64,000 nt of DNA, from NCBI RefSeq assembly GCF_024502345.1, contig NZ_JALDNN010000001.1; one strand, written 5' to 3'. Below, piece by piece: positions 1 to 36,343 of the stretch; within the stretch, counting starts at the first letter, position 1, and every line of letters begins with the position of its first letter. The DNA is from Escherichia coli (GTDB lineage Bacteria > Pseudomonadota > Gammaproteobacteria > Enterobacterales > Enterobacteriaceae). A program made the translations under genes and the position numbers. A model generated the notes under the pieces. The model worked only from the letters and a program-made list of their open reading frames with translations. It did not search any database and was not told where the DNA came from.

Positions 1-624
1 CGTCTGCATCGCATCCAGACCACCACACATTAATACTGTCGGGAACGGGCCATCGCCTTTCGGCATATGCAAAAAGCCGGTGATGGGCGCACCGCCGGGT
101 ACGGTAAACTCCATCTGCCGCATCGTGCCCGGCAGACGCTGGGCGGCCTCTTCATAGGCGCGGTTTGATAAAGCCTGCGCTTGCTCGGCCAGGTCATCTC
201 CTTTCAGATGAGGATAGGCGGCAATGTTGTACAACGTAGCCGCATGCAGCCAGTGTCGACCACTGAGTTGCGGATCTTCTTCCGCACAGGCTTTTTGTTG
301 CCACACCATCGCCTGGGTGGCCCACTCATAAATCCAGTTGCCACCACGGTAGCCAATCACGGTATCGTATAAATCATCATCGGTACGTTCAGCATCGCTC
401 ATCACAATACGTGCCTGGACGTCGAGGATTTCACGTGGGTCAATGCCGCGCCAGATCCACATCAGACGGTTAATCATGCGATACCAGTGAGGGATGGTTT
501 TACCATCAAGGGCCGACTGCACAGGCGGTTGTGCGCCGTGATTAAAGCGGCGGACTAGCGTCGAGGTTTCAGGATGTTTAAAGCGGGGTTTGAACAGGGT
601 TTCGCTCAGGTTTGCCTGTGTCAT
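1..624 (-). CDS. frsA: FrsA esterase (fermentation/respiration switch protein), 5' portion; gene runs off the window start
   Basis: Reverse strand from ATG (cat at 622-624) reads MTQANLSE...; rc of bases 1-60 encodes [20 protein letters not shown]; absent from ORF track because no stop lies inside the window. Confidence 0.85.
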
Positions 625-715
625 GGATGCAGCCTCCAGAATACTTACTGGAAACTATTGTAACCCGCCTGAAGTTAAAAAGAACAACGCCCGGCAGTGC
701 CAGGCGTTGAAAAGA

Positions 716-1174
716 TTAGCGACCGGAGATTGGCGGGACGAATACGACGCCCATATCCCACGGCTGTTCGATCCAGGTATCTTGCGGGATATCAACAACA
801 TAATCATCAACCAGCGGACGACCAGCCGGTTTTGCGAAGATAGTCACAAAATGTGCTTTTGGATACATTTCACGAATCGCAACCGCAGTACCACCGGTAT
901 CCACCAGGTCATCAATAACGATGAAGCCTTCGCCATCGCCTTCTGCGCGTTTTAGCACTTTAAGCTCGCGCTGGTTGTCGTGATCGTAGCTGGAAATACA
1001 AACGGTATCGACATGACGAATACCCAGTTCACGCGCCAGTAACGCACCCGGTACCAGACCGCCACGGCTTACGGCAATAATGCCTTTCCATTGTTCAGAA
1101 GGCATCAGTCGGCTTGCGAGTTTACGTGCATGGATCTGCAACATGTCCCAGGTGACGATGTATTTTTCGCTCAT
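716..1174 (-). CDS. gpt: Xanthine-guanine phosphoribosyltransferase
   Basis: 152-aa [22 protein letters not shown]... with PRTase motif [11 protein letters not shown]. Confidence 0.95.
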
Positions 1175-1434
1175 GTGAAGTGTCCCAGCCTGTTTATCTA
1201 CGGCTTAAAAAGTGTTCGAGGGGAAAATAGGTTGCGCGAGATTATAGAGATCTGGCGCACTAAAAACCAGTATTTCACATGAGTCCGCGTCTTTTTACGC
1301 ACTGCCTCTCCCTGACGCGGGATAAAGTGGTATTCTCAAACATATCTCGCAAGCCTGTCTTGTGTTGACAACATTTTCTGCTAACCCTGTGACCTGCAAT
1401 ACTGTTTTGCGGGTGATCGACAAGGAGACTTAAC

Positions 1435-2892
1435 GTGTCTGAACTGTCTCAATTATCTCCACAGCCGCTGTGGGATATTTTTGCCAAAATCTGTTCTATT
1501 CCTCACCCGTCCTATCATGAAGAGCAACTCGCTGAATACATTGTTGGTTGGGCAAAAGAGAAAGGTTTCCATGTCGAACGCGATCAGGTAGGTAATATCC
1601 TGATTCGTAAACCTGCTACCGCAGGTATGGAAAATCGTAAACCGGTCGTCTTACAGGCCCACCTCGATATGGTGCCGCAGAAAAATAACGACACCGTGCA
1701 TGACTTCACGAAAGATCCTATCCAGCCTTATATTGATGGCGAATGGGTTAAAGCGCGCGGCACCACGCTGGGTGCAGATAACGGCATTGGTATGGCGTCT
1801 GCGCTGGCGGTTCTGGCTGACGAAAACGTGGTTCACGGCCCGCTGGAAGTGCTGCTGACCATGACCGAAGAAGCCGGTATGGACGGTGCGTTCGGCTTAC
1901 AGAGCAACTGGTTGCAGGCTGATATTCTGATTAACACCGACTCCGAAGAAGAAGGTGAAATCTACATGGGTTGTGCGGGGGGTATCGACTTCACCTCCAA
2001 CCTGCATTTAGATCGTGAAGCGGTTCCAGCTGGTTTTGAAACCTTCAAGTTAACCTTAAAAGGTCTGAAAGGGGGTCACTCCGGCGGGGAAATCCACGTT
2101 GGCCTGGGTAATGCCAACAAACTGCTGGTGCGCTTCCTGGCGGGTCATGCAGAAGAACTGGATCTGCGCCTTATCGATTTCAACGGCGGCACACTGCGTA
2201 ACGCCATCCCGCGTGAAGCCTTTGCGACCATTGCTGTCGCAGCTGATAAAGTCGACGTCCTGAAATCTCTGGTGAATACCTATCAGGAGATCCTGAAAAA
2301 CGAGCTGGCAGAGAAAGAGAAAAATCTGGCCTTGTTGCTGGACTCTGTAGCGAACGATAAAGCTGCCCTGATTGCGAAATCTCGCGATACCTTTATTCGT
2401 CTGCTGAACGCCACCCCGAACGGTGTGATCCGCAACTCAGACGTGGCAAAAGGTGTGGTCGAAACCTCCCTGAACGTCGGTGTGGTGACCATGACTGATA
2501 ATAACGTAGAAATTCACTGTCTGATCCGTTCACTGATCGACAGCGGTAAAGACTACGTGGTGAGCATGCTGGATTCGCTGGGTAAACTGGCTGGCGCGAA
2601 AACCGAAGCGAAAGGCGCATATCCTGGCTGGCAGCCGGACGCTAATTCTCCGGTGATGCATCTGGTACGTGAAACCTATCAGCGTCTGTTCAACAAAACG
2701 CCGAACATCCAGATTATCCACGCGGGTCTGGAATGTGGTCTGTTCAAAAAACCGTATCCGGAAATGGACATGGTTTCTATCGGGCCAACTATCACCGGTC
2801 CACACTCTCCGGATGAGCAAGTTCACATCGAAAGCGTAGGTCATTACTGGACACTGCTGACTGAACTGCTGAAAGAAATTCCGGCGAAGTAA
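1435..2892 (+). CDS. pepD: Cytosol non-specific dipeptidase (aminoacyl-histidine dipeptidase) PepD
   Basis: 485-aa ORF, GTG start, MSELSQLSPQPLWDIFAKICSIPHPSYHEE...; M20-family metallopeptidase. Confidence 0.95.
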   Translation: MSELSQLSPQPLWDIFAKICSIPHPSYHEEQLAEYIVGWAKEKGFHVERDQVGNILIRKPATAGMENRKPVVLQAHLDMVPQKNNDTVHDFTKDPIQPYIDGEWVKARGTTLGADNGIGMASALAVLADENVVHGPLEVLLTMTEEAGMDGAFGLQSNWLQADILINTDSEEEGEIYMGCAGGIDFTSNLHLDREAVPAGFETFKLTLKGLKGGHSGGEIHVGLGNANKLLVRFLAGHAEELDLRLIDFNGGTLRNAIPREAFATIAVAADKVDVLKSLVNTYQEILKNELAEKEKNLALLLDSVANDKAALIAKSRDTFIRLLNATPNGVIRNSDVAKGVVETSLNVGVVTMTDNNVEIHCLIRSLIDSGKDYVVSMLDSLGKLAGAKTEAKGAYPGWQPDANSPVMHLVRETYQRLFNKTPNIQIIHAGLECGLFKKPYPEMDMVSIGPTITGPHSPDEQVHIESVGHYWTLLTELLKEIPAK

Positions 2893-2905
2893 TTATTTGA
2901 TTTGC

Positions 2906-2940
2906 TGCCGGATGGCGTTTAATCGCCTTCCGGCAGTTTC
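2906..2940 (+). terminator. Putative rho-independent terminator after pepD
   Basis: GC hairpin tgccggatggcg/tcgccttccggca followed by a T-rich run just after the pepD stop. Confidence 0.4.
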
Positions 2941-2948
2941 ATCCTTCA

Positions 2949-3506
2949 TTATCCTTCGATAAAAGCCATCCCTGTAAATGTCCGTCTCGGGTTGCCACGT
3001 TCAATCTGGTGATGGAACATTCGCCGCTGCGATTTCAGCACCGCGCTATTTTCCTGTTGCTGCTGCTCCAGCTTCCAGGCAATCAGCAATCGTGCCAGCC
3101 GCTTGTTAGCATGCTGACTACGCTCTGACTGAACCTTCACGCTAATACCGGATGCCAAATGCGTGGCGCGTACCGCCGAGTCGGTTTTATTGACATGTTG
3201 ACCGCCCGGCCCCGACGAACGCAACGTCTCATAACGGATTGCATCCGATTGTTCCTGCTCATCAGCGGTAAAACGCCCAATGCCCAGAAACCAGTTTTTG
3301 CGCCCATGATGAGGCCGATACGGACTCGGACAAATCCACTGAATAGTGCCGCACCAGCTTTCGCTTAATGCCCATGCGTTATCGCCATCCAGAGAAACCA
3401 GCGCCGAACGCAGCGTGTCAGAGTAGCGGCCTGTTTCTGTTTCCAGCACCGTTACCGCGACGTCTTGTCGGGTAAAAACGACCAACAGAGAAGAACGCTG
3501 CGCCAA
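2949..3506 (-). pseudogene. prfH: Peptide chain release factor homologue PrfH, N-terminally truncated
   Basis: 185-aa ORF with GGQ motif ([16 protein letters not shown]); first residues do not match a PrfH N-terminus and the ORF overlaps the ykfJ fragment. Confidence 0.75.
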
Positions 3507-3684
3507 TCGGGTAGCCGCGTCCGGGGTGTAAATCTGGCATCCCCACTACGCGCTGCATGTTGGGTAAATTTGCCGTGGTGTGTAATTGTTGGATCGCTAA
3601 ACTCTCGATCCACAGGTCATCAGATGCGATGGTAAATACCGCATCGGATAAGGGAAGAATATATTTGCCCATGTACCATTCCAT
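3418..3684 (-). pseudogene. ykfJ: RtcB-like RNA ligase N-terminal fragment
   Basis: 88-aa ORF MGKYILPLSDAVFTIASDDLW...[17 protein letters not shown] (RtcB N-terminal motif), then runs into the prfH frame. Confidence 0.75.
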
Positions 3685-3989: not shown

Positions 3990-4442
3990 TTAATGTTGCG
4001 GTTTATATCGCATATAAAAATTAGTAAACCACGCTCCCCGGCATTCAACGCGCTGCTGCTTAACTGTCTGAAAACCATAACGTTCAAAAAAGGGTTTTGC
4101 GGTTATGCTGGCATCTACCGTAAGTTCGGATTCAGACTTAATCAATGGTTTTAACAAGGCGCTGGCAACCCCGCGGCGGGTGTATTCAGGGTCAACAAAT
4201 AACATATCGATATAACGTTCAATGCGGGAAATAAAACCAACCGGTTGTGCATTAATGACGGCAACCCGCACTTGTGATTTCGCGAGTTTCTCCTTCCAGC
4301 GAGATTCGTCAATCTGCGCCCAGGCGGCAATTTGTTGTGGAGAATAGTGCTGACTGGAGGTCATCGTAACCGCTCTAATGAAAATAGCGCATAGTTGCTG
4401 AAAATCGCCAGGCTGATAGTTTCTTATTTGTATGTTATTCAT
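3990..4442 (-). CDS. yafP: GNAT-family acetyltransferase YafP
   Basis: 150-aa [24 protein letters not shown]...; start overlaps the dinB stop (ATGA). Confidence 0.9.
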
Positions 4443-5494
4443 AATCCCAGCACCAGTTGTCTTTCCATTTGCGGATCCAGCAACGTCACATGCAGCCCCA
4501 CCAGTCGCACACCTCGCCCGCCGCGGCGTTCATCCCAGGTTTTACGCGCGGTGGCGATTAAGTCAGCTTTATTCAGCCTCGGCCAGACGTGCTCCTGGGT
4601 GGTTTGCTGAAAATCGTCGAACTTTAATTTCACCCCCTGGCGAGCAATCAGTAAATCAGGTTTTACCTTTGCCAGACGGCGTTCAAGTTCCGGATACAGC
4701 CGCTCGATAATCGCTTCACATTCAGACCAGTGATGAATATCTTCCGCCATCGTGCGTTCCACGCCGACGGATTTTCGCAACCGTTCGCTGTTAACATCGC
4801 GTTCGTCAATCCCCTGACTACGCTCCCACAAAATGCGGCCAAATTTGCCAAAGCGTTTAAGCAGCATCACCAGATCACACTTTTGTACATCACCGCAGGT
4901 CCGCAGCCCCATCGCTTCCAGTTTTGCCGCCGAGACTTTGCCGACGCCGGGGATTTTTGCCAGTGGTAAGGTTTGTAAAAATGCCGGAACTTCTGCCGGC
5001 GTAATCACAAACTGGCCGTTGGGTTTATTCATGTCGGAGGCGATTTTGGCGAGAAACTTTACTGGTGCCACGCCCGCAGACGCCGTCAGTTGCAGCTCGC
5101 TGAAAATCGTCTGGCGGATTTCCTGGGCGATGAGGGTCGCAGAACCGTGGCAATGGACGCTATCGGTGACATCGAGATAAGCCTCATCCAGTGACAACGG
5201 TTCAATGCGCGAAGTGTAGCGCGAGAAGATTTCACGGATATGATTTGAGGCTTCTTTGTAGGCGTCAAAGCGCCCCGGAAGCAAGGTGAGATGTGGGCAT
5301 AATTTGAGCGCCATCCCAGTAGGCATAGCGCTACGTACGCCAAATTTACGCGCGGGATAATTGGCGGTGCTGATCACCCCCCGACGTTCGCGGCTGCCGC
5401 CAATAGCAATAGGGATATCGCGCAGGGCGGGATTGTCGCGCATCTCCACCGCTGCGAAAAAGCAGTCCATATCCACATGAATGATTTTACGCAT
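4439..5494 (-). CDS. dinB: DNA polymerase IV (Y-family translesion polymerase)
   Basis: 351-aa [36 protein letters not shown]... Confidence 0.95.
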
Positions 5495-5508
5495 TGCTCA
5501 CCTCTCAA

Positions 5509-5528
5509 CACTGGTAAAGTATACAGTG
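5509..5528. promoter_or_regulatory. LexA (SOS) box upstream of dinB
   Basis: CACTGGTAAAGTATACAGTG, i.e. CTGT-N8-ACAG on the reverse strand, 15 bp upstream of the dinB start. Confidence 0.8.
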
Positions 5529-5564
5529 ATTTCAGGGTTTGAGAAATGCGTAAAGATTCAGCAT

Positions 5565-6455
5565 TTAGCGCGTTCGTTGTGAAAGCACCTGCTGCTTATC
5601 CAGCTTTTGCACCAGCGGCTGCACCACTTTATCCCCATGCTGACCAAAGTATTGATACAGCGTATCGGACGCGCTTTTAGTCAGCACCATAATCTCAATG
5701 CGCCGATTGCCCGCGCTTTGCGGATTTTTGGCATCCAGCAGCATCTGGTCCGCCATTGCGCTTACCTGCATCACTTTATCTTCCGGCATTCCGGCCTCTT
5801 CCAGCACCCGACGAGCCGAAAGCGCGCGGTCACCCGAAAGGTTCCAGTTGTTGTAGATATTGTTTTTGTAGGCCATCGCATCGGTATGCCCGGTAATAAT
5901 AATTTTATTATCGAGCGAGTCGAACACTGGCGCTAACTCCACCAACAGCGTTTTAAAGAACGGCATAATCTGCGCGCTGCCGCGTTCGAACATATTGCGA
6001 TTCTGGTCGTCTTTAATCAGCACGCGTAATCCCTGCGGGACAATCTCCATCTCCAGATTCGCTTCCATATGCGCATCACGGGCAATGGTGTTGATACTGG
6101 TTGCCAGCTCACCAAGCTCGGTGGCGGATTTCTTCTTCAGCAGCGCCGTTTTCTCGTTGACGTCGCGCGCTTTTTTCTCCGTCTCTTCCGGCACCGCCAC
6201 GGTGGCAGGTTTTGGCGGATGAGACGGGCTGATTTTATTTAACGGCGACAGCCCACCACCGTTAAAAATCGACTGCCCGTGCAGCGCGGCGATAATGCTT
6301 TCACGCTCGGATTTACTGACGCTGTTGACAATCAACTTTATCGTCGTCACCAAAGGGGCCGAGCGTATTTCCGAGGTTTCTGCCCGCTTCACCCTGGACG
6401 CGATGCCCGGCAAGCAGATGGCGATTGACGCCGATCTTAACGCCGGGTTGATCAA
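5565..6455 (-). pseudogene. lafU: Lateral-flagellar MotB-like protein LafU, fragment
   Basis: OmpA/MotB C-terminal domain (ITGHTD...NWNLSGDRALSARRV...RRIEIMV); the 5' end of the ORF overlaps the divergent lfhA fragment. Confidence 0.7.
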
Positions 6456-8034
6456 CCAGGCGCAGGCGCAAACCCGGCGTAAAGATGTCGCCAGCGAGGC
6501 CGATTTCTACGGCGCGATGGACGGGGCATCGAAGTTTGTGCGCGGGGATGCCATCGCCGGGATGATGATTCTGGCGATCAACCTGATCGGCGGCGTCTGT
6601 ATCGGGATCTTCAAATACAACCTGAGCGCCGATGCCGCCTTCCAGCAATATGTGCTGATGACCATCGGCGACGGCCTGGTGGCGCAGATCCCTTCCCTGC
6701 TGCTCTCCACGGCGGCGGCGATAATCGTCACCCACGTCAGCGACAACGGCGATATCGCCCATGACGTGCGCCACCAGTTGCTGGCAAGCCCGTCGGTGCT
6801 CTACACCGCTACCGGGATTATGTTTGTGCTGGCGGTGGTGCCGGGAATGCCGCATCTGCCGTTTTTGCTGTTCAGCGCCCTGCTTGGCTTTACCGGCTGG
6901 CGAATGAGCAAACGCCCGCAGGCAGCGCAGGCGGAAGAGAAAAGCCTCGAAACGCTGACCCGCACCATCACTGAAACCAGCGAGCAACAGGTCAGTTGGG
7001 AAACCATTCCGCTGATCGAGCCCATCAGCTTAAGCCTCGGCTACAAACTGGTGGCGCTGGTGGACAAAGCGCAGGGCAACCCGCTCACCCAGCGGATTCG
7101 CGGCGTGCGGCAGGTGATTTCTGACGGCAACGGCGTGCTGCTGCCGGAGATCCGCATTCGGGAAAACTTCCGCCTTAAGCCCAGCCAGTACGCTATTTTC
7201 ATCAACGGCATTAAGGCTGATGAAGCGGATATTCCGACGGATAAACTGATGGCCCTGCCCTCCAGCGAAACCTACGGCGAGATTGACGGCGTGCTGGGGA
7301 ACGACCCGGCGTACGGGATGCCGGTGACCTGGATCCAGCCTGCGCAGAAAGCGAAGGCGCTGAATATGGGGTATCAGGTGATCGACAGCGCCAGCGTGAT
7401 TGCCACCCATGTGAATAAGATTGTACGCAGCTATATTCCTGATTTGTTTAACTATGACGACATCACACAGTTGCATAACCGTTTGTCGTCGATGGCACCG
7501 CGCCTGGCAGAAGACTTAAGCGCGGCGCTGAATTACAGCCAGTTGCTGAAAGTGTACCGCACACTACTGACCGAAGGCGTTTCCCTGCGCGATATCGTCA
7601 CCATCGCCACCGTGCTGGTCGCCAGTAGCGCGGTGACTAAAGATCATATTCTGCTGGCGGCCGATGTACGCCTGGCGCTGCGGCGCAGCATTACCCATCC
7701 GTTCGTTCGCAAGCAGGAGCTGACGGTGTATACGCTGAATAATGAGCTGGAAAATCTGCTGACCAACGTGGTGAATCAGGCGCAACAGGGCGGTAAAGTG
7801 ATGCTCGACAGCGTGCCAGTGGACCCGAATATGCTCAACCAGTTCCAGAGCACGATGCCACGGGTGAAAGAGCAGATGAAAGCGGCGGGGAAAGATCCGG
7901 TGCTGCTGGTGCCGCCGCAGCTGCGTCCTTTGCTGGCGCGCTACGCAAGGTTGTTTGCGCCGGGGCTGCATGTGCTGTCGTATAACGAAGTGCCGGACGA
8001 GCTGGAGTTGAAGATTATGGGGGCCTTGATGTAG
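6295..8034 (+). pseudogene. lfhA: FlhA-like flagellar export protein, N-terminally truncated (Flag-2 remnant)
   Basis: 579-aa ORF begins mid-protein in an FlhA-conserved region (FTLDAMPGKQMAIDADL); about 110 N-terminal residues are missing. Confidence 0.75.
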
Positions 8035-8039
8035 GTATT

Positions 8040-8215
<176 letters not shown>

Positions 8216-8219
8216 ACAA

Positions 8220-8717
8220 TTATGAAATGATACGCTCCCCGGCACTAAAATCCGTTATGTCTCCCGCCCAATCAATGGGATATAACCCTCGCGCCACATC
8301 GCGATGGAACGTTGAGAATGGCCAATCTCTCACCTGCTTTACCCAGCCATGTTTCACTGGATTTATATAAATATAATCAACATGATGTCGGTAATCTGTG
8401 GTATTGCGAATGGCATGCTCCCAAAAACGCGGTTGCCAGATATTATTCAATCCGCAAGCATGGGTGAACTGCTTTTTAATCTCCCGCCAGCGGGAGGAAA
8501 AATCATCATCGCTTTCGGGTAATGTCCATATGCAATGCATATGCTCCGGCAAAACTACCCAGGCATTAATTTCAAAAGGTCTGGCTCGCTTAACTTTAAT
8601 AATGGCGTTACGGAGCGTCTGGTACTGGGTAGTCAAAAGTTGGCTTCGACGATTCCGTAAATTCACCGTGAAAAACCAGCTTCCCCCCTTGAGGTAATAA
8701 CGACGATATTCAGACAT
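8220..8717 (-). CDS. rayT: REP-associated tyrosine transposase RayT (TnpA-REP)
   Basis: 165-aa ORF MSEYRRYYLKGGSWFFTVNLRNRR...; flanked on both sides by REP clusters. Confidence 0.9.
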   Translation of the reverse strand: MSEYRRYYLKGGSWFFTVNLRNRRSQLLTTQYQTLRNAIIKVKRARPFEINAWVVLPEHMHCIWTLPESDDDFSSRWREIKKQFTHACGLNNIWQPRFWEHAIRNTTDYRHHVDYIYINPVKHGWVKQVRDWPFSTFHRDVARGLYPIDWAGDITDFSAGERIIS

Positions 8718-8807
8718 AGCGACTCCTTTTTCTCAACGGTAAGAGGAAAAGGAAAGGTCGGCAATGAGGTGATGGAATAACGGGAAAGCAGCTCGCAAAA
8801 ACGCACA

Positions 8808-8895
8808 AATTTGTAGGCATGATAAGACGCGCCAGCGTCGCATCAGGCATCGGTGCACAACTGCCGGATGCGGCGTAAACGCCTTATCCGTCCTA
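8808..8895. repeat. REP/BIME cluster
   Basis: Same REP units as at 8040-8215, on the other side of rayT. Confidence 0.8.
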
Positions 8896-9642
8896 CAAAA
8901 TCGTCTCCTCCGTCAAAATCCGGCGCGCGCCTAAAAAATGATCCTGCCAGAAAGGTTCAGCTAACCGACTTACCCGAATGGTTTCCCCGGTGCGCGGTGA
9001 CTCAATAAACTGACCGTCGCCCAGATACACCCCCATATGGTCGGCAATCTCACGACTGTGAATATGGAAAAACAGCAAATCTCCCCGGCGCAGGTCGTTA
9101 TTCGCCACAATCGTTGCCCGGCGGTAGTGATACATCTCATTGGCCGTGCGCGGGAGCTTCGCCTCGAGGATCTTGTTGTAGGCATAAAAAACCAACCCGC
9201 TACAGTCGAAGCCTTTATCAGGCCGCGTGCCGCCCCAGACGTAAGGCTTGCCAAGCTGCTGCTCCAGGCGGTGAATCGCCACTTCGGTGATGTTATGCAG
9301 GTGATCGCTGCTTAAAAAGTGGTTGTTTTCCGCCAGCGCCTGCCAGCGTCTGTCACTCGCCTTGAGCGGCGCAGGAAACCATTCTGGATGCTGTTTTATC
9401 TGTTCGCGGTTGTGCTGGCGCAGCGCCCTTCTGCTTTCGGCATTGCCTTCCACAATATAGCTGGCCTGCTTTTTCAGATGGGTTTGGTACTGTTTTAATA
9501 AACGCGCACGGTTTTGCATCCGCTGGCGGGCGGCGTAGCTGAAAGAGATATGTGATGTGGTGGCGCTGGCAAATGAAGAAAACGGCAAACAAATCAACAG
9601 TAATCCCGACAATACAAAGGATGGAATCGACGGCAAGGACAT
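8893..9642 (-). CDS. yafL: NlpC/P60-family lipoprotein peptidase YafL
   Basis: Start moved to MSLPSIPSF... (cat at 9640-9642); catalytic Cys context DCSGLVFYAY; the track ORF extends further upstream to 9702. Confidence 0.85.
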   Translation of the reverse strand: MSLPSIPSFVLSGLLLICLPFSSFASATTSHISFSYAARQRMQNRARLLKQYQTHLKKQASYIVEGNAESRRALRQHNREQIKQHPEWFPAPLKASDRRWQALAENNHFLSSDHLHNITEVAIHRLEQQLGKPYVWGGTRPDKGFDCSGLVFYAYNKILEAKLPRTANEMYHYRRATIVANNDLRRGDLLFFHIHSREIADHMGVYLGDGQFIESPRTGETIRVSRLAEPFWQDHFLGARRILTEETIL

Positions 9643-9819
9643 ACTCAATAATGGCTGGTCATGCTTTAATGTTGCAGTGTATCCCGGATCGTTTCTGAAC
9701 AAACTTAATAAACCATTATTATAAAATTAACATATATATTTCAGTGAATTATGTAAATACATCAGTTTATTGAATTGTTCATGAATTGCCGCTGTTGCTC
9801 ATTTGAGCTACAATTCAAG

Positions 9820-9851: not shown

Positions 9852-10112
9852 ATGGCTGCTAACGCGTTTGTTCGTGCCCGAATCGATGAAGATCTGAAGA
9901 ATCAGGCGGCGGACGTACTGGCCGGGATGGGGCTGACCATCTCTGACCTGGTTCGCATAACCCTCACAAAGGTCGCGCGTGAAAAGGCATTGCCGTTTGA
10001 TTTACGCGAGCCTAATCAATTAACCATTCAATCAATCAAAAACAGCGAAGCTGGCGTTGATGTTCATAAGGCCAAAGACGCCGATGATTTATTTGATAAA
10101 TTAGGAATTTAA
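9852..10112 (+). CDS. dinJ: Antitoxin DinJ (RelB/DinJ family)
   Basis: 86-aa ORF MAANAFVRARIDEDLKNQAADVLAGMGLTISDLVRI... Confidence 0.9.
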   Translation: MAANAFVRARIDEDLKNQAADVLAGMGLTISDLVRITLTKVAREKALPFDLREPNQLTIQSIKNSEAGVDVHKAKDADDLFDKLGI

Positions 10113-10114
10113 AT

Positions 10115-10393
10115 ATGATTCAAAGGGATATTGAATACTCGGGACAATTTTCAAAGGATGTAAAACTTGCACAAAAGCGTCATAAGGATATGAATAAATT
10201 GAAATATCTTATGACGCTTCTTATCAATAATGCTTTACCGCTTCCAGCTGTTTATAAAGACCACCCGCTGCAAGGTTCATGGAAAGGTTATCGCGATGCT
10301 CATGTCGAACCGGACTGGATCCTGATTTACAAACTTACCGATAAACTTTTACGATTTGAGAGAACTGGAACTCACGCGGCGCTCTTTGGGTAA
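10115..10393 (+). CDS. yafQ: mRNA interferase toxin YafQ
   Basis: 92-aa ORF 3 bp after dinJ; MIQRDIEYSGQFSKDVKLAQKRHKDMNKL... Confidence 0.9.
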   Translation: MIQRDIEYSGQFSKDVKLAQKRHKDMNKLKYLMTLLINNALPLPAVYKDHPLQGSWKGYRDAHVEPDWILIYKLTDKLLRFERTGTHAALFG

Positions 10394-10548
10394 AGCACGC
10401 TGCCGATGAAATTTGTAAACCCTGCGCCGACAGGCTTGCGTAAAACTCTTTTGGTGATAATGTGAGCCTTCCAAATCCAGACTATTCCGATTTGGGATCT
10501 ATTTTGCCGTCCTGGCGTGTGTAACCGTTTTATCAAGGAATAAGCAGT

Positions 10549-11289
10549 ATGCGTAAAATCGCATTAATTCTTGCGATGTTGTTGATCCCGTGCGTTTCGT
10601 TTGCCGGTTTGCTGGGCAGCAGTAGCTCGACCACGCCAGTGAGCAAAGAGTATAAGCAGCAGTTGATGGGATCCCCTGTCTACATCCAGATCTTCAAGGA
10701 AGAACGTACGCTCGATCTCTACGTCAAAATGGGCGAGCAATATCAGCTGCTCGACAGTTATAAAATCTGTAAATATTCCGGCGGCTTAGGGCCAAAACAG
10801 CGTCAGGGCGATTTCAAAAGCCCGGAAGGGTTTTATAGCGTCCAGCGTAATCAGTTAAAACCAGACAGCCGTTACTACAAAGCGATTAATATTGGTTTCC
10901 CCAATGCCTATGACCGTGCGCATGGTTATGAAGGGAAATACCTGATGATCCACGGCGATTGTGTTTCCATCGGCTGCTACGCAATGACCAATCAGGGTAT
11001 TGATGAGATCTTCCAGTTCGTTACTGGTGCGCTGGTGTTTGGTCAGCCGAGCGTGCAAGTGAGTATTTACCCGTTCCGCATGACCGACGCCAATATGAAG
11101 CGCCATAAATATTCCAACTTTAAGGACTTCTGGGAGCAACTGAAGCCGGGTTACGACTACTTTGAGCAAACCCGTAAGCCACCGACCGTTTCTGTGGTCA
11201 ATGGTCGTTACGTGGTCAGCAAGCCGTTAAGCCACGAAGTTGTGCAGCCACAACTGGCATCAAACTACACGCTCCCCGAGGCAAAATAA
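10549..11289 (+). CDS. yafK: L,D-transpeptidase-like periplasmic protein YafK
   Basis: 246-aa ORF with signal peptide [19 protein letters not shown] and YkuD-like core ([12 protein letters not shown]). Confidence 0.9.
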
Positions 11290-12027
11290 GCGCCATTCGC
11301 CTGGCATAATCTTTTGCCAGGTTTCATTGCCCGTCAGCGGCTGTGTTGCAATCACCGTGACCACATCATTCGGTGTGGTCTGCGAGCTGAAGTCGATTTC
11401 CACATCCTGATCCAGCAGCGTTGCCACGCCAAACGGCGCGCGGCGGGTGATCCAGTGTAAATTAGTCGAGCAATACGCCATCACATAGCGCCCGTCAGAA
11501 AGCAGCATGTTGAAAACGCCCTTCTGCCGCAGTTCATCCGCCAGTGAGGCGATATATTTAAACACTGCCGCCATGTTGCCCGGTGTGCGCGGGTAACGCT
11601 GCGTTAATTTATGCAGGAGCCAGCAGAAGGCTTTTTCGCTATCGGTTTCACCGACCGGGCGGAAGTTGCCGGTTTCCAGTGATTTGTAGCCCGTCAGTTG
11701 TCCGTTATGGGCATAAGTCCAGTTACGCCCCCATAACTCACGGGTAAACGGGTGAGTATTTTCCAGCGCCACCTCGCCCCGATTGGCCTGGCGAATATGA
11801 GCCACCACCGAACAGGATTTTATCGGGTAGTCCTGGACAAGTTTGGCGATGGGGGAATTAAAGCTGGGTTGTGGATCTTTAAATGTGCGACAGCCTTTAC
11901 CTTCGTAAAAGGTAATGCCCCAGCCATCTTTATGTGGCCCGGTTCCACCACCACGCTGCACCAGACCGGTGAAACTAAAGCAGATATCGGTAGGGACGTT
12001 GGCGCTCATCCCGAGCAATTCGCACAT
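11260..12027 (-). CDS. yafJ: Class II glutamine amidotransferase YafJ
   Basis: Start moved to [12 protein letters not shown]... (cat at 12025-12027), preceded by GGAGG; N-terminal Cys nucleophile. Confidence 0.9.
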
Positions 12028-12089
12028 GGGTAACCTCCACAACAGCGGGAGCGCATGGCCCCCGGCGAAGATTGATTTAAGAATTTTCA

Positions 12090-12228
<139 letters not shown>

Positions 12229-12232
12229 AGAC

Positions 12233-12811
12233 TTACTTAACCATCTCTTTTTCAATTAACTGGATCAGGATATGGATCACTTTAATGTGAATCTCCTGAA
12301 TGCGGTCGGCATAACCAAAGTGCGGAACGCGAATTTCGATATCCGCCGTGCCAGCCATTTTACCGCCGTCTTTACCGGTCAGGGTGATCACTTTCATCCC
12401 CTTCTCACGCGCCGCTGCGATCGCTTTGATCACGTTTGCAGAGTTACCGGAGGTGGAGATCCCCAGCAGTACATCGCCTTCGCGACCTACCGCTTCAACG
12501 TAGCGGGAGAAAATATCATTGAAACCGAAATCATTACCGACGCAGGAAATATGACTAACGTCAGAAATAGCAATCGCCGGGTAGCCCGGACGGTTTTCAC
12601 GGTAGCGACCGGTCAACTCTTCGGCAAAGTGCATAGCGTCGCAATGGGAACCGCCGTTGCCGCAGGAAAGCACTTTGCCACCGGCTTTAAAGCTGTCTGC
12701 TAACAGGACCGCCGCGCGCTGAATGGCGTGAATATTGGCGTCATCTTTTAAAAAGTTAGCCAGCGTTTCCGCCGCTTCGTTCAGTTCGTTACGAATAAGA
12801 TCCTGGTACAT
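12233..12811 (-). CDS. gmhA: Phosphoheptose isomerase (sedoheptulose-7-phosphate isomerase)
   Basis: Start moved to [17 protein letters not shown]... (cat at 12809-12811), giving 192 aa; SIS domain motifs; the track ORF has a 54-codon 5' extension. Confidence 0.95.
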
Positions 12812-13050
12812 GAGGATATCCTTCAGCATAAATGTAATAGACAAAATGCAGTGTACCGGATACCGCCAAAAGCGAGAAGTACGGGCAGGTGCTATGACCA
12901 GGACTTTTTGACCTGAAGTGCGGATAAAAACAGCAACAATGTGAGCTTTGTTGTAATTATATTGTAAACACATTGCTAAATGTTTTTACATCCACTACAA
13001 CCATATCATCACAAGTGGTCAGACCTCCTACAAGTAAGGGGCTTTTCGTT

Positions 13051-15495
13051 ATGATGATTTTGAGTATTCTCGCTACGGTTGTCCTGCTCGGCGCGTTGTT
13101 CTATCACCGCGTGAGCTTATTTATCAGCAGTCTGATTTTGCTCGCCTGGACAGCCGCCCTCGGCGTTGCTGGTCTGTGGTCGGCGTGGGTACTGGTGCCT
13201 CTGGCCATTATCCTCGTGCCATTTAACTTTGCGCCTATGCGTAAGTCGATGATTTCCGCGCCGGTATTTCGTGGTTTCCGTAAGGTGATGCCGCCGATGT
13301 CGCGCACTGAGAAAGAAGCGATTGATGCGGGCACCACCTGGTGGGAGGGCGACTTGTTCCAGGGCAAGCCGGACTGGAAAAAGCTGCATAACTATCCGCA
13401 GCCGCGCCTGACCGCCGAAGAGCAAGCGTTTCTCGACGGCCCGGTAGAAGAAGCCTGCCGGATGGCGAATGATTTCCAGATTACTCATGAGCTGGCGGAT
13501 CTGCCGCCGGAGTTGTGGGCGTACCTTAAAGAGCATCGCTTCTTCGCGATGATTATCAAAAAAGAGTACGGCGGACTGGAGTTCTCAGCTTATGCCCAGT
13601 CTCGCGTGCTGCAAAAACTCTCCGGCGTGAGCGGGATCCTGGCGATTACCGTCGGCGTGCCGAACTCATTAGGCCCGGGCGAGCTGCTGCAACATTACGG
13701 CACTGACGAGCAGAAAGATCACTATCTGCCGCGTCTGGCGCGTGGTCAGGAGATCCCTTGCTTTGCACTGACAAGCCCGGAAGCGGGTTCCGATGCGGGC
13801 GCGATTCCGGACACCGGGATTGTCTGCATGGGCGAATGGCAGGGCCAGCAGGTGCTGGGGATGCGTCTGACCTGGAACAAACGCTATATTACGCTGGCAC
13901 CGATTGCGACTGTGCTTGGGCTGGCGTTTAAACTCTCCGACCCGGAAAAGCTGCTGGGTGGCGCAGAAGATTTAGGTATTACCTGTGCGCTGATCCCGAC
14001 CACCACGCCGGGCGTGGAAATTGGTCGTCGCCACTTCCCGCTGAACGTACCGTTCCAGAACGGACCGACGCGCGGTAAAGATGTCTTCGTACCGATCGAT
14101 TACATCATCGGTGGGCCGAAAATGGCCGGGCAAGGCTGGCGGATGCTGGTGGAGTGCCTCTCGGTAGGCCGCGGCATCACCCTGCCTTCCAACTCAACCG
14201 GCGGCGTGAAATCGGTAGCGCTGGCAACGGGCGCGTATGCTCACATTCGCCGTCAGTTCAAAATCTCTATCGGTAAGATGGAAGGGATTGAAGAGCCGCT
14301 GGCGCGTATTGCCGGTAATGCCTACGTGATGGATGCTGCGGCATCGCTGATTACCTACGGCATTATGCTCGGCGAAAAACCTGCCGTGCTGTCGGCTATC
14401 GTTAAGTATCACTGTACCCACCGCGGGCAGCAGTCGATTATTGATGCGATGGATATCACTGGTGGCAAAGGCATTATGCTCGGGCAAAGCAACTTCCTGG
14501 CGCGTGCTTACCAGGGCGCACCGATTGCCATCACCGTTGAAGGGGCTAACATTCTGACCCGCAGCATGATGATCTTCGGACAAGGAGCGATTCGTTGCCA
14601 TCCGTACGTGCTGGAAGAGATGGAAGCGGCGAAGAACAATGACGTCAACGCGTTCGATAAACTGTTGTTCAAACATATCGGTCACGTCGGTAGCAACAAA
14701 GTTCGCAGCTTCTGGCTGGGCCTGACGCGCGGTTTAACCAGCAGCACGCCAACCGGCGATGCCACTAAACGCTACTATCAGCACCTGAACCGCCTGAGCG
14801 CCAACCTCGCCCTGCTTTCTGATGTCTCGATGGCAGTGCTGGGCGGCAGCCTGAAACGTCGCGAGCGCATCTCGGCCCGTCTGGGGGATATTTTAAGCCA
14901 GCTCTACCTCGCCTCTGCCGTGCTGAAGCGTTATGACGACGAAGGCCGTAATGAAGCCGACCTGCCGCTGGTGCACTGGGGCGTACAAGATGCGCTGTAT
15001 CAGGCTGAACAGGCGATGGATGATTTACTGCAAAACTTCCCGAACCGCGTGGTTGCCGGGCTGCTGAATGTGGTGATCTTCCCGACCGGACGTCATTATC
15101 TGGCACCTTCTGACAAGCTGGATCATAAAGTGGCGAAGATTTTACAAGTGCCGAACGCCACCCGTTCCCGCATTGGTCGCGGTCAGTACCTGACGCCGAG
15201 CGAGCATAATCCGGTTGGCTTGCTGGAAGAGGCGCTGGTGGATGTGATTGCCGCCGACCCAATTCATCAGCGGATCTGTAAAGAGCTGGGTAAAAACCTG
15301 CCGTTTACCCGTCTGGATGAACTGGCGCACAACGCGCTGGCGAAGGGGCTGATTGATAAAGATGAAGCCGCTATTCTGGTGAAAGCTGAAGAAAGCCGTC
15401 TGCGCAGTATTAACGTTGATGACTTTGATCCGGAAGAGCTGGCGACGAAGCCGGTAAAGTTGCCGGAGAAAGTGCGGAAAGTTGAAGCCGCGTAA
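13051..15495 (+). CDS. fadE: Acyl-CoA dehydrogenase FadE
   Basis: Start moved to [20 protein letters not shown]... (ATG 13051), giving 814 aa; the track ORF starts 26 codons upstream. Confidence 0.95.
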
Positions 15496-15503
15496 TTGAA
15501 TAA

Positions 15504-15530
15504 CGGAGCCGAAAGGCTCCGTTTCTTTAT
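15504..15530. terminator. Putative bidirectional terminator between fadE and ivy
   Basis: Hairpin acggagcc-gaaa-ggctccgt followed by ttctttat. Confidence 0.5.
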
Positions 15531-15537
15531 CCGCTAA

Positions 15538-16011
15538 TTATTTAAAATTAAAGCCATCCGGATGGTTTTCCAGGCTGCCGGTCAACGCCGCGAACAGCAC
15601 CGTTTTACCATCAATCGAAAGCGCATCGTTCACATTCAGCCAGGTGAGTTTCTCTTGCGACGTTTTCTCATCAATAGTCGAGAACAGCCCCGTCATCTGA
15701 TTAGATTTCTCGGACCACATCACAGCGATACGTTGCGAGCCACAGTCATGCGGTTTGCACGCGCTCATCACCTGATACGTCTCATCTCCCAACGTTACGG
15801 TTTGTGCGGGAGTATAAGTACCGCCTTTCATCACCCAGGCAGGCAGCTTATGCCCTTGTACCATCTGATTAAATGCAGCTTTGGTGGTTTCGCCCTTTGC
15901 AAGGCTGCTAATGGTTAAATCATCCTGCGCCATTGCACTGGTGGCGATGACCAGAGCGGCGACTGTCGTTATTGCCTTAAACATCATTCCTCCCGAGCTT
16001 ATCCTGCCCAT
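15538..16011 (-). CDS. ivy: Inhibitor of vertebrate lysozyme Ivy
   Basis: 157-aa ORF with signal peptide and CKPHDC motif. Confidence 0.95.
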   Translation of the reverse strand: MGRISSGGMMFKAITTVAALVIATSAMAQDDLTISSLAKGETTKAAFNQMVQGHKLPAWVMKGGTYTPAQTVTLGDETYQVMSACKPHDCGSQRIAVMWSEKSNQMTGLFSTIDEKTSQEKLTWLNVNDALSIDGKTVLFAALTGSLENHPDGFNFK

Positions 16012-16164
16012 GTTATTAACCTTCTAAAGCCTGGCGATAACACGATAATTTGCAAATCAGATATTTCCAATATCAGCATTTGTTATCAATTTATTCTGCG
16101 CTAAGGCAACTGCCTGATAAGGTGTTAAAGTTATAAAACCCTTCGCATAAAGGAGTTGTACACC

Positions 16165-16935
16165 GTGCCTGGTTTGAAGATTACGCTTTTGCAGCAACCA
16201 CTGGTGTGGATGGATGGCCCTGCCAACCTGCGTCATTTTGATCGTCAACTGGAAGGTATTACCGGGCGCGATGTGATCGTTCTACCGGAGATGTTTACCA
16301 GCGGCTTTGCCATGGAAGCGGCAGCTTCGTCGCTAGCACAAGATGACGTAGTGAACTGGATGACAGCTAAGGCGCAGCAGTGCAATGCGCTGATTGCAGG
16401 CAGTGTTGCATTACAAACGGAGTCTGGTTCGGTTAACCGCTTTTTGCTGGTTGAGCCGGGCGGCACGGTACATTTTTATGATAAGCGTCATCTGTTCCGC
16501 ATGGCAGATGAGCATCTACATTATAAAGCGGGCAATGCGCGAGTGATTGTGGAATGGCGCGGCTGGCGTATTTTGCCGTTGGTGTGCTACGACTTACGTT
16601 TTCCGGTGTGGTCGCGCAATCTCAACGATTATGACCTCGCCATCTACGTTGCCAACTGGCCTGCTCCGCGCTCTCTGCACTGGCAGGCATTGCTGACGGC
16701 CCGCGCGATTGAGAATCAGGCGTATGTGGCGGGATGCAATCGCGTCGGCAGCGATGGCAACGGCTGCCATTATCGCGGTGACAGCCGGGTGATTAATCCA
16801 CAAGGCGAGATTATCGCTACTGCCGACGCGCATCAGGCAACGCGCATTGATGCGGAGCTGTCGATGATGGCATTGCGGGAATATAGAGAAAAGTTTCCGG
16901 CATGGCAGGATGCGGATGAGTTTAGGTTGTGGTGA
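16165..16935 (+). CDS. yafV: Nitrilase-superfamily omega-amidase YafV
   Basis: C-N hydrolase ORF (...[19 protein letters not shown]...); GTG at 16165 chosen because AAGGAG sits 9 nt upstream; the track starts at TTG 16156. Confidence 0.85.
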
Positions 16936-17007
16936 GTGGGGGTTGTGTTTAAGGACGGGGAGAGTCGGGGTATTACTACGAAAGCCCGCTCTCCTGCGAC
17001 CACTTTT

Positions 17008-23616: not shown

Positions 23617-23845
23617 TGTGGGATGCAAATAAAGTTTCATCCTAACCCTAAAAACAGAGAGAAACGTCGCGCGCTCTCCTATTCATAAAAAATCCCTTTT
23701 ATATCAGTATGTTGTGAGCACTTACACCCGAGACTGGATCGTTTTGCCTTTCATGGGAGAATGATTAAGGGCGCTAAAGTATCATCCTAATTTTCGCCCA
23801 GGCTCGAAAAATACGGTAAATGGTGAAAATAAAGATTCATCCTTT
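23617..23845. repeat. Tn7-like left end with three spaced TnsB-binding-type repeats
   Basis: ATAAAGTTTCATCC (about 23626), TAAAGTATCATCC (about 23776), ATAAAGATTCATCC (about 23829). Confidence 0.7.
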
Positions 23846-24138
23846 TCCGATGTTGCCCGTTCCAACACGTAAGCAGTCAGTCAGAAAAAACACATAGATC
23901 CAATCCCTAGCGAGCATTGAGCTCTCTCATCCGTGCCAACTGCTCCAACCCTTGGACGCCCTAAATGCTTACCCAAAAAAATCAACACCTTCTTTTAAAA
24001 ACACAATCAAAAATGACACCCTTATATCCATTTAACCTAAACAGCCTTCCCCCCACTGCACTAGCTAGGGCTCGTAGTTCGGCGCAAGGCTGAAGTCGCT
24101 TGGCTGCTTCGCTGTGCAGATCCATGACCCACTTTCCA

Positions 24139-25302
24139 TCAAACTCCCGGTTGTAGTTCCACAAGCATCTCGCGAGTCTTGCCGGCCCGCTCCACTAACA
24201 AGACCACAACATCTCCAACGTTCTTGTCGTCTAGCCGGGCCTGTAATGTGGTGACGTCGTCGACGGCGATACCGTCGATGCTGATAACGCGATCGCCGGG
24301 CACGATGCCGCCTGCGGTGACCTCGACGCCGACGAGCCCGGCCCTGTGCGCCGCCGAGCCCGGCGTCACGCGCAATACGAATACGCCCTTACTGCCGGTC
24401 AGCGCCTGCAGACGCGCGTTGAGCTGCTCATCCACCTCGATGCCCAGCGCCGGACGGATGTACTTGCCGGTCTTTATGAGTTGCGGCACCACGCGCATGA
24501 CGGTATCGACCGGCACCGCAAAGCCGATGCCGGCCGAGGCGCCAGACGGACTGTAGATGGCGGTATTGATGCCGATCAGCCGCCCAGCCGAATCGAGCAG
24601 CGGGCCACCGGAATTGCCGGGGTTGATAGCGGCGTCGGTCTGGATCAGGTGGTCAATGGCCGGGCCACTGGCGTCGCCGGAAAGGGTGCGGTCAAGCGCC
24701 GAGACGATGCCGGTGGTGAGCGTCCAGTCGAGCCCGAAGGGATTGCCAATGGCAAAGACCTTTTGCCCCACCTTGAGATCGGCACTGGTGCCCACCGGCA
24801 CCGCCGGCGGGCGCTTGAAGCCGACGCCAATCTTGAGTACCGCGATGTCGTGCGCAGGACTAGCGCCAACGAGCGCAGCCTGATAATCGCGACCGTCGGC
24901 CAGTTTGACCGTGGCAGACGATGCCCCCTGGATCACGTGGAAGTTGGTCACCACGTGGCCGGCATCGTCCCAGATGAAGCCGGAGCCGGTGCCGCGCGGC
25001 ACGGAAAAGACATTGCGCGACCAGACGTGACGCACTAGTTGTGCCGTGGTGATGTAAACCACCGACCCGCGCGATTTCTCGAACAGCTCGATGGTGGTTT
25101 TTTCGTCGGCGGCCAGGTCGCCGCGCGGCGTCACCGTGCGCTCCTGCGTTTCGTGGGGACTGAACCAGGCTTCGATGGCGGGCAGGAACTGCCACAGCAG
25201 CATGAGTGCGGCGATGCAGCCAGTGATGACGAGCCAGCGCCGGATGAAGCGGTCCGGCGCCGGGCGGCTGTAGGGGTCGGGGTAGGTCACGTCATTCTCC
25301 AT
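24139..25302 (-). CDS. degP: DegP/HtrA-family periplasmic serine protease
   Basis: 387-aa ORF with trypsin-like catalytic motif GNSGGPLLD and a C-terminal PDZ-like region. Confidence 0.85.
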   Translation of the reverse strand: MENDVTYPDPYSRPAPDRFIRRWLVITGCIAALMLLWQFLPAIEAWFSPHETQERTVTPRGDLAADEKTTIELFEKSRGSVVYITTAQLVRHVWSRNVFSVPRGTGSGFIWDDAGHVVTNFHVIQGASSATVKLADGRDYQAALVGASPAHDIAVLKIGVGFKRPPAVPVGTSADLKVGQKVFAIGNPFGLDWTLTTGIVSALDRTLSGDASGPAIDHLIQTDAAINPGNSGGPLLDSAGRLIGINTAIYSPSGASAGIGFAVPVDTVMRVVPQLIKTGKYIRPALGIEVDEQLNARLQALTGSKGVFVLRVTPGSAAHRAGLVGVEVTAGGIVPGDRVISIDGIAVDDVTTLQARLDDKNVGDVVVLLVERAGKTREMLVELQPGV

Positions 25303-25309
25303 GTTGAAA

Positions 25310-30342: not shown

Positions 30343-30359
30343 GGTGGGATTCCTTGTGT

Positions 30360-36322: not shown

Positions 36323-36343
36323 GATGTTGGACTCCAATTGAAG

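Follow-up and report, generated by a model that had tools for sequence, protein, structure and literature searches.

In Escherichia coli K-12 and B, the genes fhiA and mbhA are pseudogene remnants of lfhA and lafU from the Flag-2 lateral flagellar cluster (PMC3032704), and fhiA-mbhA has also been given as an overlapping gene pair (PMC1940028). The locus considered here lies in a 64,000-nucleotide stretch of E. coli DNA (assembly GCF_024502345.1, contig NZ_JALDNN010000001.1; hereafter the window), in which divergent fragments of the same two genes, lafU' and lfhA', are joined at a single junction. Because K-12 has the same arrangement and descriptions of it as fhiA/mbhA have been published, the identity of this scar and its interpretation are already known and, as written, add nothing new. 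The K-12 scar was reportedly described by Ren, Beatson, Parkhill and Pallen in 2005 (J Bacteriol 187:1430).

Similar remnants extend beyond K-12. The available portion of a survey of Enterobacterales gives truncated lfhA and lafU in 531 of 4028 strains, chiefly in taxa that hold complete loci as well, and states that Salmonella and other genera free of Flag-2 have no such scars (De Maayer et al. 2020; PMC6993521). In the accessible part of another study, all Flag-2-negative E. albertii share a uniform remnant of ~2.5 kb (PMC11420993). As far as these two sources were available, they treat the remnants as pseudogene debris of en bloc deletions, and those portions do not state that the junction is identical at the nucleotide level across genera or families, or that the frames are open with low ratios of non-synonymous to synonymous substitution (dN/dS). 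All four papers cite Ren et al. 2005.

Annotation routinely treats the locus as dead pseudogenes left by one ancient deletion. This view does not fit the sequence data: the junction is identical to the nucleotide across genera and two families, the remnants evolve like working genes, their flanks are unlinked and near-clonal strains differ only in whether the 35-kb cluster is present. The reading favoured here, at a probability of roughly 0.5, is that intact loci have repeatedly undergone one and the same precise deletion, on different haplotypes of E. coli and in genera outside Escherichia.

Anatomy of the lafU'-lfhA' junction

The list of open reading frames (ORFs) for the window contains a reverse ORF at 5565..6455 (-), with 296 residues and a TTG start, and a forward ORF at 6295..8034 (+), with 579 residues and an ATG start. 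An earlier sequence-only reading had called these MotB-like and FlhA-like, and profile matches agree. The reverse ORF matches the NCBIfam LafU profile NF005273 (E 1e-143; ORF residues 41-287 to profile positions 42-297 of 297); its sole Pfam domain is OmpA (PF00691; E 1.3e-14; residues 155-248), with no MotB_plug. The forward ORF matches Pfam FHIPEP (E 4e-188; residues 9-570 to positions 99-656 of 657), while against the NCBIfam FlhA profile TIGR01398 it scores 591.5, under the cut-off of 772.1, with profile positions 1-113 missing. The initial residues of both ORFs have no homology to the LafU or FlhA family.

The intact reference is E. coli TUM9803 (locus L001), where a complete Flag-2 cluster lies between dinB and rayT, with lafU at 8863-9786 (-), lfhA at 44559-46652 (+) and ~40 flagellar genes in between. 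Window positions 5400-6336 align to 8698-9634 of this locus and positions 6322-8170 to 44940-46789. Base by base, the lafU side is the same up to 6333 (ending in GACAATC) and the lfhA side from 6331 onwards (ATCAACTTT..), and colinearity with the intact lafU begins at nucleotide 156 of that gene. The junction therefore falls at 6331-6333, where ATC is the sole exact match between the parental sites. These read GACAATC followed by CAC on the lafU side and GATCATC followed by AAC on the lfhA side; in the window, GACAATC is followed by AACTTT. Around the junction lies an imperfect direct repeat with 11 of 15 matching positions (also 9 of 12). The junction was placed against three intact loci. Relative to TUM9803, 35,320 bp are missing, from lafT through lfhB, which upholds the earlier proposal that the locus marks the endpoint of a large deletion of a lateral flagellar cluster. 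Comparison of the 35.3-kb interior of the TUM9803 locus with the 64-kb window gave only short repetitive extragenic palindromic (REP) elements by blastn and only tiny summed segments by tblastx, so no other lateral-flagella genes were found in the window.

These alignments show how the locus arose. Ancestrally, dinB and rayT/yafL were separated by a lateral-flagella cluster of ~35 kb, with the MotB-type stator gene lafU at one end and the FlhA-type export-gate gene lfhA at the other. It was lost by a deletion from after lafU codon 52 to after lfhA codon 130. The ends were joined at a microhomology of 2-3 bp, AT(C), leaving two divergent 3' gene pieces. Both breakpoints fall within membrane-helix codons that are conserved at the nucleotide level in all genera examined, and a 77-nucleotide stretch around the junction is invariant in the first 10 E. 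coli alleles compared. The lafU breakpoint lies in the loop of a hairpin with an 8-bp stem (free energy, dG, -12.9 kcal/mol; z = -3.6).

The sequence-only reading had described the two genes as overlapping at their 5' ends over 6295-6455. This holds for the ORFs, which share that span of 161 bp, and not for gene-derived sequence, since the lafU part ends at 6333 and the lfhA part starts at 6331. The overlap is mere read-through of each ORF into the antisense of its partner. The start chosen by the NCBI Prokaryotic Genome Annotation Pipeline (PGAP) for a 261-residue 'LafU' is a GTG at 6348-6350, inside the reverse-ORF read-through, whose translation (..SEIRSAPLVTTIKL) is also the N-terminus of truncated LafU proteins in other genera. 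Across genera, the forward-ORF read-through has neither a conserved start codon nor a good Shine-Dalgarno match. A plus-strand sigma-70-like site at 6269-6296 (TCGACT, 16-nucleotide spacer, GATAAT; 9 of 12) lies inside antisense lafU' and overlaps the forward-ORF ATG; this promoter-like site is weak, a consensus match only, and is not treated as evidence.

Both frames are open in the window. N-terminal truncation had been proposed for the FlhA-like ORF alone; it was found there and in the LafU-like ORF too, with LafU residues 1-52 and LfhA residues 1-130 absent, so that neither aligns full-length to a functional homologue. The lafU' piece retains the periplasmic linker and the C-terminal OmpA-like peptidoglycan-binding domain of a MotB/LafU stator and lacks the membrane helix, the conserved Asp39 and the MotB plug. 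Intact LafU residues 33-52 (WKVAFADFTLAMMALFMTLW, with Asp39) align with the MotB membrane segment of solved stator structures, and the MotB_plug domain (PF13677) is found in full-length LafU relatives and in none of the truncated forms. The residues missing from lfhA' correspond to the first 98 FHIPEP profile positions, leaving an incomplete N-terminal membrane domain for an FlhA/LfhA export gate. The partner gate genes lfhB and lfiPQR, carried upstream of lfhA in intact loci, are not present in the window. Since the interior Flag-2 genes are absent from the window, the remnants cannot build or drive a lateral flagellum. With both genes truncated, the canonical junction, a position between dinB and rayT/yafL and no interior genes in the 64 kb, the region is with high confidence a canonical Flag-2 deletion scar of the fhiA/mbhA type. 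The value of this call lies in correct filing and in a junction fixed to three nucleotides.

Scar and intact alleles within and beyond E. coli

Megablast against 5426 complete E. coli genomes finds the scar in one colinear piece in 4070-4071 of them. In some other genomes the match begins only at query position 923-932, under a gene annotated as full-length flhA, and some part of the region is kept in 5420 of the 5426. Scar alleles (first 7, later 16 distinct) were taken evenly down the BLAST ranking. Full sequences were compared for 4 intact and 16-17 scar alleles; the complete clusters are those of TUM9803, O111:H8 TW05614, XYEH3783 and FAM21845. All 16 distinct scar alleles have the same junction and both frames open with no insertion or deletion, at a divergence of up to 30/766 positions in lafU' and 101/1704 in lfhA', about 5%. 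The E. coli genome searches also gave 17 matching places of the scar region on records typed as plasmids.

The remnants vary in the manner of functional genes. Pooled ratios of non-synonymous to synonymous polymorphism (pN/pS) are 0.049 for lafU' and 0.034 for lfhA' among scars, next to 0.066 for lafU and 0.040 for lfhA across the four intact alleles; dinB, a neighbour that still works, has 0.020. The first 7 scar alleles hold 222 synonymous and 33 non-synonymous variants (13% non-synonymous, where a neutral model expects 68%), and their 240 variable sites include 0 stop codons against 5.7 expected (P = 0.003). Net length is unchanged in 44 of 45 evenly sampled scar genomes. A test on private mutations gave 25 synonymous and 10 non-synonymous changes in scars and 13 and 5 in intact alleles, a number too small to discriminate and one confounded by recombination. 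Decay does occur, though rarely. OkiPb01690, whose junction is that of the other 16 alleles, has a stop in lafU' and IS421 in lfhA', Z1323CEC0019 has a stop in lafU', and rare in-frame deletions are found in proteins P0011, P0016 and P0017. In OkiPb01676 (H126), only the last 6% of lfhA' is left.

Sequence is freely common to the two states. The lfhA' of K-12 differs from the intact genes of TUM9803 and FAM21845 at 0/1704 positions, the lafU' of ABWA45 from intact FAM21845 at 3/766, and among the E. coli alleles read no single-nucleotide polymorphism (SNP) is fixed between scar and intact states. The K-type lfhA' allele is paired with four different lafU' haplotypes among scars. Among the 16 scars, linkage disequilibrium (LD) between SNPs less than 150 nucleotides apart has a mean r2 of 0.016 for pairs straddling the junction, as against 0.22-0.23 inside either flank. 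The two flanks behave as if a long distance had lain between them.

Synthetic scars made from the intact loci were matched to real scar genomes. Those of FAM21845 and TUM9803 have perfect 2470/2470 matches among real scars, and the best matches for O111 TW05614 and XYEH3783 are 99.9% and 99.2%. FAM21845 (intact, raw-milk cheese) and CFSAN051542 (scar, blue cheese) show 6 differences in 24.7 kb, with zero differences up to 12 kb left and up to 6.5 kb right of the junction. TUM9803 and the scar strain ECCWS199 show 4 mismatches in 9.6 kb of left flank, while the right 4.5 kb are only 99.2% identical (15 mismatches, 20 gap positions), with rayT and yafL frameshifted in ECCWS199. The intact O111 TW05614 and the scar Z1323CEC0019 differ by 5 mismatches in 7.4 kb. 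On either flank, near-identity within the three pairs extends over 3-12 kb. The haplotypes of these three pairs are several percent apart from each other. No divergence step was seen at the breakpoint positions in intact loci. Around the junction, neither a trough of diversity among scars nor a lowered divergence of E. albertii from E. coli is seen, except within a window where intact loci are invariant as well.

Two further observations concern the intact clusters and the range of deletions. Each of the four complete E. coli clusters (L001, L008, L009, L090) has at least one disrupted gene, a different one each: a frameshifted glycosyltransferase in TUM9803, a stop in flgK in O111 TW05614, a frameshifted fliF in XYEH3783, whose dinB is also frameshifted, and a stop in flgF together with IS1 in a lafZ-like regulator in FAM21845. 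The E. coli proteins P0013 and P0014 (357 and 429 residues; 10 and 2 contigs) have a proline/glutamine-rich N-terminal part fused to LafU from about residue 80 (..AVLSPLNKISPSHPP..). To judge by their sequences, these fusions look like the product of a different internal deletion within Flag-2 cluster 3, so that other deletion types would exist, though uncommon.

Evidence from other genera came from a protein database search with the reverse ORF, followed by retrieval of the encoding contigs; a motif scan of genome contigs was swamped by the universal FlhA motif DAMPGKQM and yielded just four useful loci, from two Citrobacter, E. albertii and Aeromonas. Truncated LafU proteins without MotB_plug occur in E. 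albertii, three Citrobacter species, Kluyvera, Atlantibacter, Dryocola, Edaphovirga and others. Their N-termini are the same antisense-lfhA read-through, with the same fusion residue: TT(I/M/T)KL precedes IVNSVSK, where full-length proteins have FMTLW before IVNSVSK. DNA was read for Kluyvera ascorbata, two A. hermannii lineages, Atlantibacter sp. RC6, Citrobacter sp. R-1.5.2 and Dryocola clanedunensis, and for two genomes of an Ewingella-like taxon whose nearest named full-length LafU is that of Ewingella americana (89%; Yersiniaceae). In all these genera the junction nucleotide is the same, GAC(A/G)AT(C/T) followed by AACTT. Identity at the DNA level holds in E. albertii as well; Edaphovirga and others are covered at the protein level only.

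Synonymous differences start right at the junction, on both sides, in every genus. In every genus examined the lfhA' frame runs uninterrupted for precisely 567 codons, and that of lafU' continues to its own stop. Between genera dN/dS of the scars is 0.02-0.19, with saturated dS and with the highest value reached between families; within species and within Atlantibacter it is 0.02-0.05. The three Atlantibacter scars compared pairwise give a dS of 0.8-1.2 and dN/dS of 0.024-0.034, and of the changes between the two Ewingella-like scars 27 are synonymous and 1 is non-synonymous. Divergence of the scars keeps pace with that of their neighbours, as in loci L107 and L108, which are 87% identical over 6.5 kb, contiguous across the junction. 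They also resemble the intact allele of their own genus: scar and intact alleles of Kluyvera are 98.6% identical over 3.8 kb. The genomic context of the scar varies by genus, and the sequence on which each scar sits is typical of its own genus.

The type strain of E. albertii, NBRC 107761 (locus L013, 2831-5521), has the canonical junction, a 22-bp deletion in lfhA' (near window position 7264) and a rearranged 3' end of lafU'. Its lfhA' is ~6% and its lafU' ~9% diverged from the E. coli alleles, and dinB was not found in the 3 kb left of its lafU'.

A proposed recurrent deletion and its rivals

An identical junction on many unrelated backgrounds and in several genera, with undecayed pieces, looks unlike a one-off accident. 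If the deletion recurs, each scar would be young, and its pieces would retain the sequence, open frame and low dN/dS of recently functional genes. Recurrent deletion in situ accounts for all the patterns with one event each, and the concentration of scars in taxa that also hold complete loci, as far as the available part of the Enterobacterales survey goes (PMC6993521), supports it. The even odds given to this reading include an unrecognised site-specific system. A site-specific process that repeatedly deletes the whole of Flag-2 wherever it is present would in effect be an inbuilt means, set by the sequence itself, of switching off a 35-kb flagellar system; the chance of this is put a little short of even, and it would explain why the remnants never look decayed.

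Several points weigh against recurrence. No mechanism accounts for the site specificity: 1191 pairs of lafU and lfhA positions have equally good microhomology, and a direct repeat nearby with 13 of 14 matches is unused, on which grounds microhomology was rejected as a sufficient reason for the site. The lafU hairpin is weakened as a universal cause because its stem is imperfect in Kluyvera, and no recombinase domain was found in the uncharacterised interior Flag-2 ORFs. Haplotype and LD patterns within species could come from recombination between scar and intact strains, since any tract received from an intact donor has to stop at the junction, and long replacements by donors sharing the haplotype could account for the intact/scar pairs. 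The E. coli alleles covered in full are few, 4 intact and 16-17 scar. RayT was considered as the agent and rejected because it is not beside the scar in the Kluyvera, Atlantibacter and Ewingella-like loci.

The strongest competitor, possible within species and overall an unlikely but serious contender, is a single deletion whose junction was carried across lineages, species and genera by homologous recombination through conserved flanks, which were overwritten from intact strains while purifying selection in intact carriers kept the remnants clean. The invariant 77-nucleotide window and the placement of both breakpoints in conserved membrane-helix codons suit it, as do the alleles shared between scars and intact loci and the lack of fixed SNPs; exchange that terminates at the junction predicts a loss of LD at exactly this point, as is seen, and a unique junction then needs no special chemistry. 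Such spread must, however, carry the junction across arms just 70-80% identical between genera or families, and synonymous differences appear within a few bases of the junction in every genus, with no foreign tract left. Scars show no diversity trough of their own, intact loci lack the step in divergence that scar donors should create, and each of the three clone-level pairs needs two tight exchanges or a same-haplotype donor. The standard account, one old Escherichia deletion followed by neutral drift of two promoterless pseudogenes, agrees with the literature description of the locus (PMC3032704; PMC6993521, in its available part), with the PGAP flag of lfhA' as incomplete and with the decaying alleles of NBRC 107761, OkiPb01690, Z1323CEC0019, P0011, P0016 and P0017. 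It is nevertheless very improbable: the deficits of stops and of non-synonymous changes in the first 7 scars, the stable length of 44 of 45 genomes, the Atlantibacter ratios, the 567 open codons in every genus and a junction that extends beyond Escherichia all go against it. One-off deletion with neutral decay is contradicted by dN/dS and the open frames, and misassignment of intact genes is excluded by the junction sequences.

Constraint of this kind would also be expected if the two-fragment locus were itself selected, with truncated LafU, LfhA or both expressed and useful, the former as a periplasmic peptidoglycan-binding domain and the latter as a partial membrane and cytoplasmic FlhA domain, and purifying selection keeping junction and frames. 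At least 6 genera, between which synonymous divergence is saturated, have both frames open, the Ewingella-like scars differ almost only at synonymous sites, nearly all E. coli genomes retain part of the region and PGAP calls the 261-residue LafU coding sequence. Yet for neither piece do the genera share a conserved start codon or ribosome-binding site, and the length of upstream read-through ranges between 27 and 399 nucleotides. Scars equal intact genes in dN and dN/dS even in membrane and gate-loop regions, whose function would be expected to depend on the lost N-terminal segment and on the gate partners; scars are reported mainly beside complete loci and as absent from Salmonella and other Flag-2-free genera (PMC6993521, available part), and natural knock-outs exist (NBRC 107761, OkiPb01690, Z1323CEC0019). 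Selection on the fragments is therefore considered improbable. Slightly less credit still goes to the idea that the Flag-2 interior is a site-specifically excisable, perhaps re-integrating element, with the scar as its empty attachment (att) site and a recombinase that is encoded elsewhere or unrecognised. Such an element would account for one junction occurring in many taxa, for clean intact/scar pairs, for the lack of LD between the two sides of the junction and for the co-occurrence of scars with intact loci (PMC6993521, same portion), and an imperfect inverted repeat with 11 of 14 matches lies at the ends of the deleted segment (TGTTTATCATCCTG in lfhA, CAGCGTCATAAACA in lafU). That repeat is near chance level, arising from two similar hydrophobic peptide motifs; the shared core is just 2-3 bp and any 6-bp overlap has a mismatch, the sequence of intact loci is continuous across the putative att positions, and neither the uncharacterised interior ORFs nor the annotation of the four intact loci include an integrase or recombinase. 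That the ORFs are two genuine intact divergent genes with truly overlapping 5' ends, or an assembly chimera, has next to no credibility. Both are long and open, and fhiA-mbhA was once listed as a conserved overlapping pair (PMC1940028), but the overlapping parts are the antisense of the partner gene without LafU or LfhA homology, both proteins lack their N-terminal segments, and the arrangement is reproduced in thousands of independent assemblies; the antisense overlap and the 4070-4071 scar genomes refute both versions.

If recurrent deletion is true, it is an unusually precise and widespread route to switch off a costly organelle. If the junction has instead spread by recombination, it is a clean natural example of a "contagious" deletion allele, with the gene pool of the species keeping its remnants free of decay. 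In both cases, whether a strain has Flag-2 is unfit as a simple vertical phylogenetic marker.

Neighbourhood and comparison with known systems

The features of the scar and its immediate neighbours are collected in Table 1. Directly after dinB, with overlapping stop and start codons, comes yafP (3990-4442), and the yafN-yafO toxin-antitoxin pair is missing. This pair is present in K-12, TUM9803 and FAM21845 and missing in ECNB21-M121, GPEC673, 88-3493, ABWA45 and O111 TW05614. Left of yafP, at 2949-3684, lie a prfH ORF (185 residues) and a short RtcB-like ORF fragment; rtcB-prfH is full-length in O111 TW05614 and truncated in TUM9803 and FAM21845.

Table 1. Coordinates of the scar and adjacent features in the 64-kb window
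Feature	Position	Strand	Content or basis
dinB, conserved left neighbour	4439..5494	-	ORF list and annotation of syntenic loci
lafU' remnant (mbhA in K-12)	5565..6333	-	LafU codons 53-307 and stop (5565-5567); colinear with L001 8863-9631 at 97.3%
Forward-ORF read-through, antisense lafU', not LfhA sequence; ATG at 6295	6295..6330	+	Comparison with intact locus
lfhA' remnant (fhiA in K-12)	6331..8034	+	LfhA codons 131-697 and stop (8032-8034); colinear with L001 44949-46652 at 94.7%
Reverse-ORF read-through, antisense lfhA', not LafU sequence	6334..6455	-	Comparison with intact locus
REP-element cluster, right of lfhA'	8041-8169	.	REP matches
rayT, right neighbour	8220-8717	-	ORF list and annotation

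A second REP cluster near rayT lies at 8813-8900 and another at 12083-12232; the same REP family occupies intergenic gaps of intact Flag-2, at about 5.5, 11.3, 13.5, 14.5, 16.5, 23.5 and 30.5 kb of the TUM9803 interior. In 95-3322, O111 TW05614 and Z1323CEC0019, hicA-hicB stands instead of rayT between lfhA and yafL. The segment dinB-lafU'-lfhA'-rayT-yafL (3998-9578) is unusually diverse, at 96.3% and then 92.1% identity to ABWA45, next to 98.7% for the fadE region (10409-16994), and pS of dinB among 10 alleles is 0.11. A dinJ-yafQ toxin-antitoxin pair at 9852-10393 is missing from the otherwise similar ABWA45 locus.

Further right, a heat-resistance island (23617-42928) is 99.6% identical to E. 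coli ABWA45 and carries clpK, sHSP20-GI, yfdX1/2, hdeD-GI, trx-GI, a truncated ftsH, htpX, a psiE-family gene and an IS21 insertion. Positions 30000-36000 have a match of at least 99% in only 4 of 5426 complete E. coli genomes. Further mobile DNA lies at 50000-56000, in an island that goes on to about 64000; this segment, 99.9% shared with ABWA45, C 236-04A and LR536430, encodes a TnsA-like endonuclease, a protein with a Mu-transposase C-terminal domain and a type III restriction-modification system. Most of the window right of ~17 kb therefore appears to be island and not core.

The closest described system is the fhiA-mbhA pair of K-12. It shares with the window the place between dinB and rayT/yafL, both fragments and the junction nucleotide, with a 786-nucleotide lafU called by PGAP and a 1719-nucleotide lfhA', and the two align as one colinear BLAST piece at 95.8%. 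They differ in that the window has C instead of T at 6342 and lacks yafN-yafO beside dinB. The window allele is distinct from that of K-12, its best match among the 5426 complete E. coli genomes being 97.8%. Complete E. coli Flag-2 clusters, of which strain 042 is the example in the literature, share the chromosomal site and the terminal genes, with lafU and lfhA colinear with the remnants up to the junction; unlike the window, they have the 35-kb interior of ~40 genes, a LafU of 307 residues and an LfhA of 697.

Classical deletion hot spots, as in lacI, and the precise excision of Tn10 and Tn5 arise by slipped mispairing at short direct repeats, aided by inverted repeats. The scar resembles them in its join at a short imperfect direct repeat, a RecA-independent signature, and in the hairpin at one breakpoint. 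Whereas classical hot spots use longer repeats over far shorter spans and the best available homology, the scar combines an exact repeat of 2-3 bp with a span of 35 kb and more than 1000 equally good pairs of positions.

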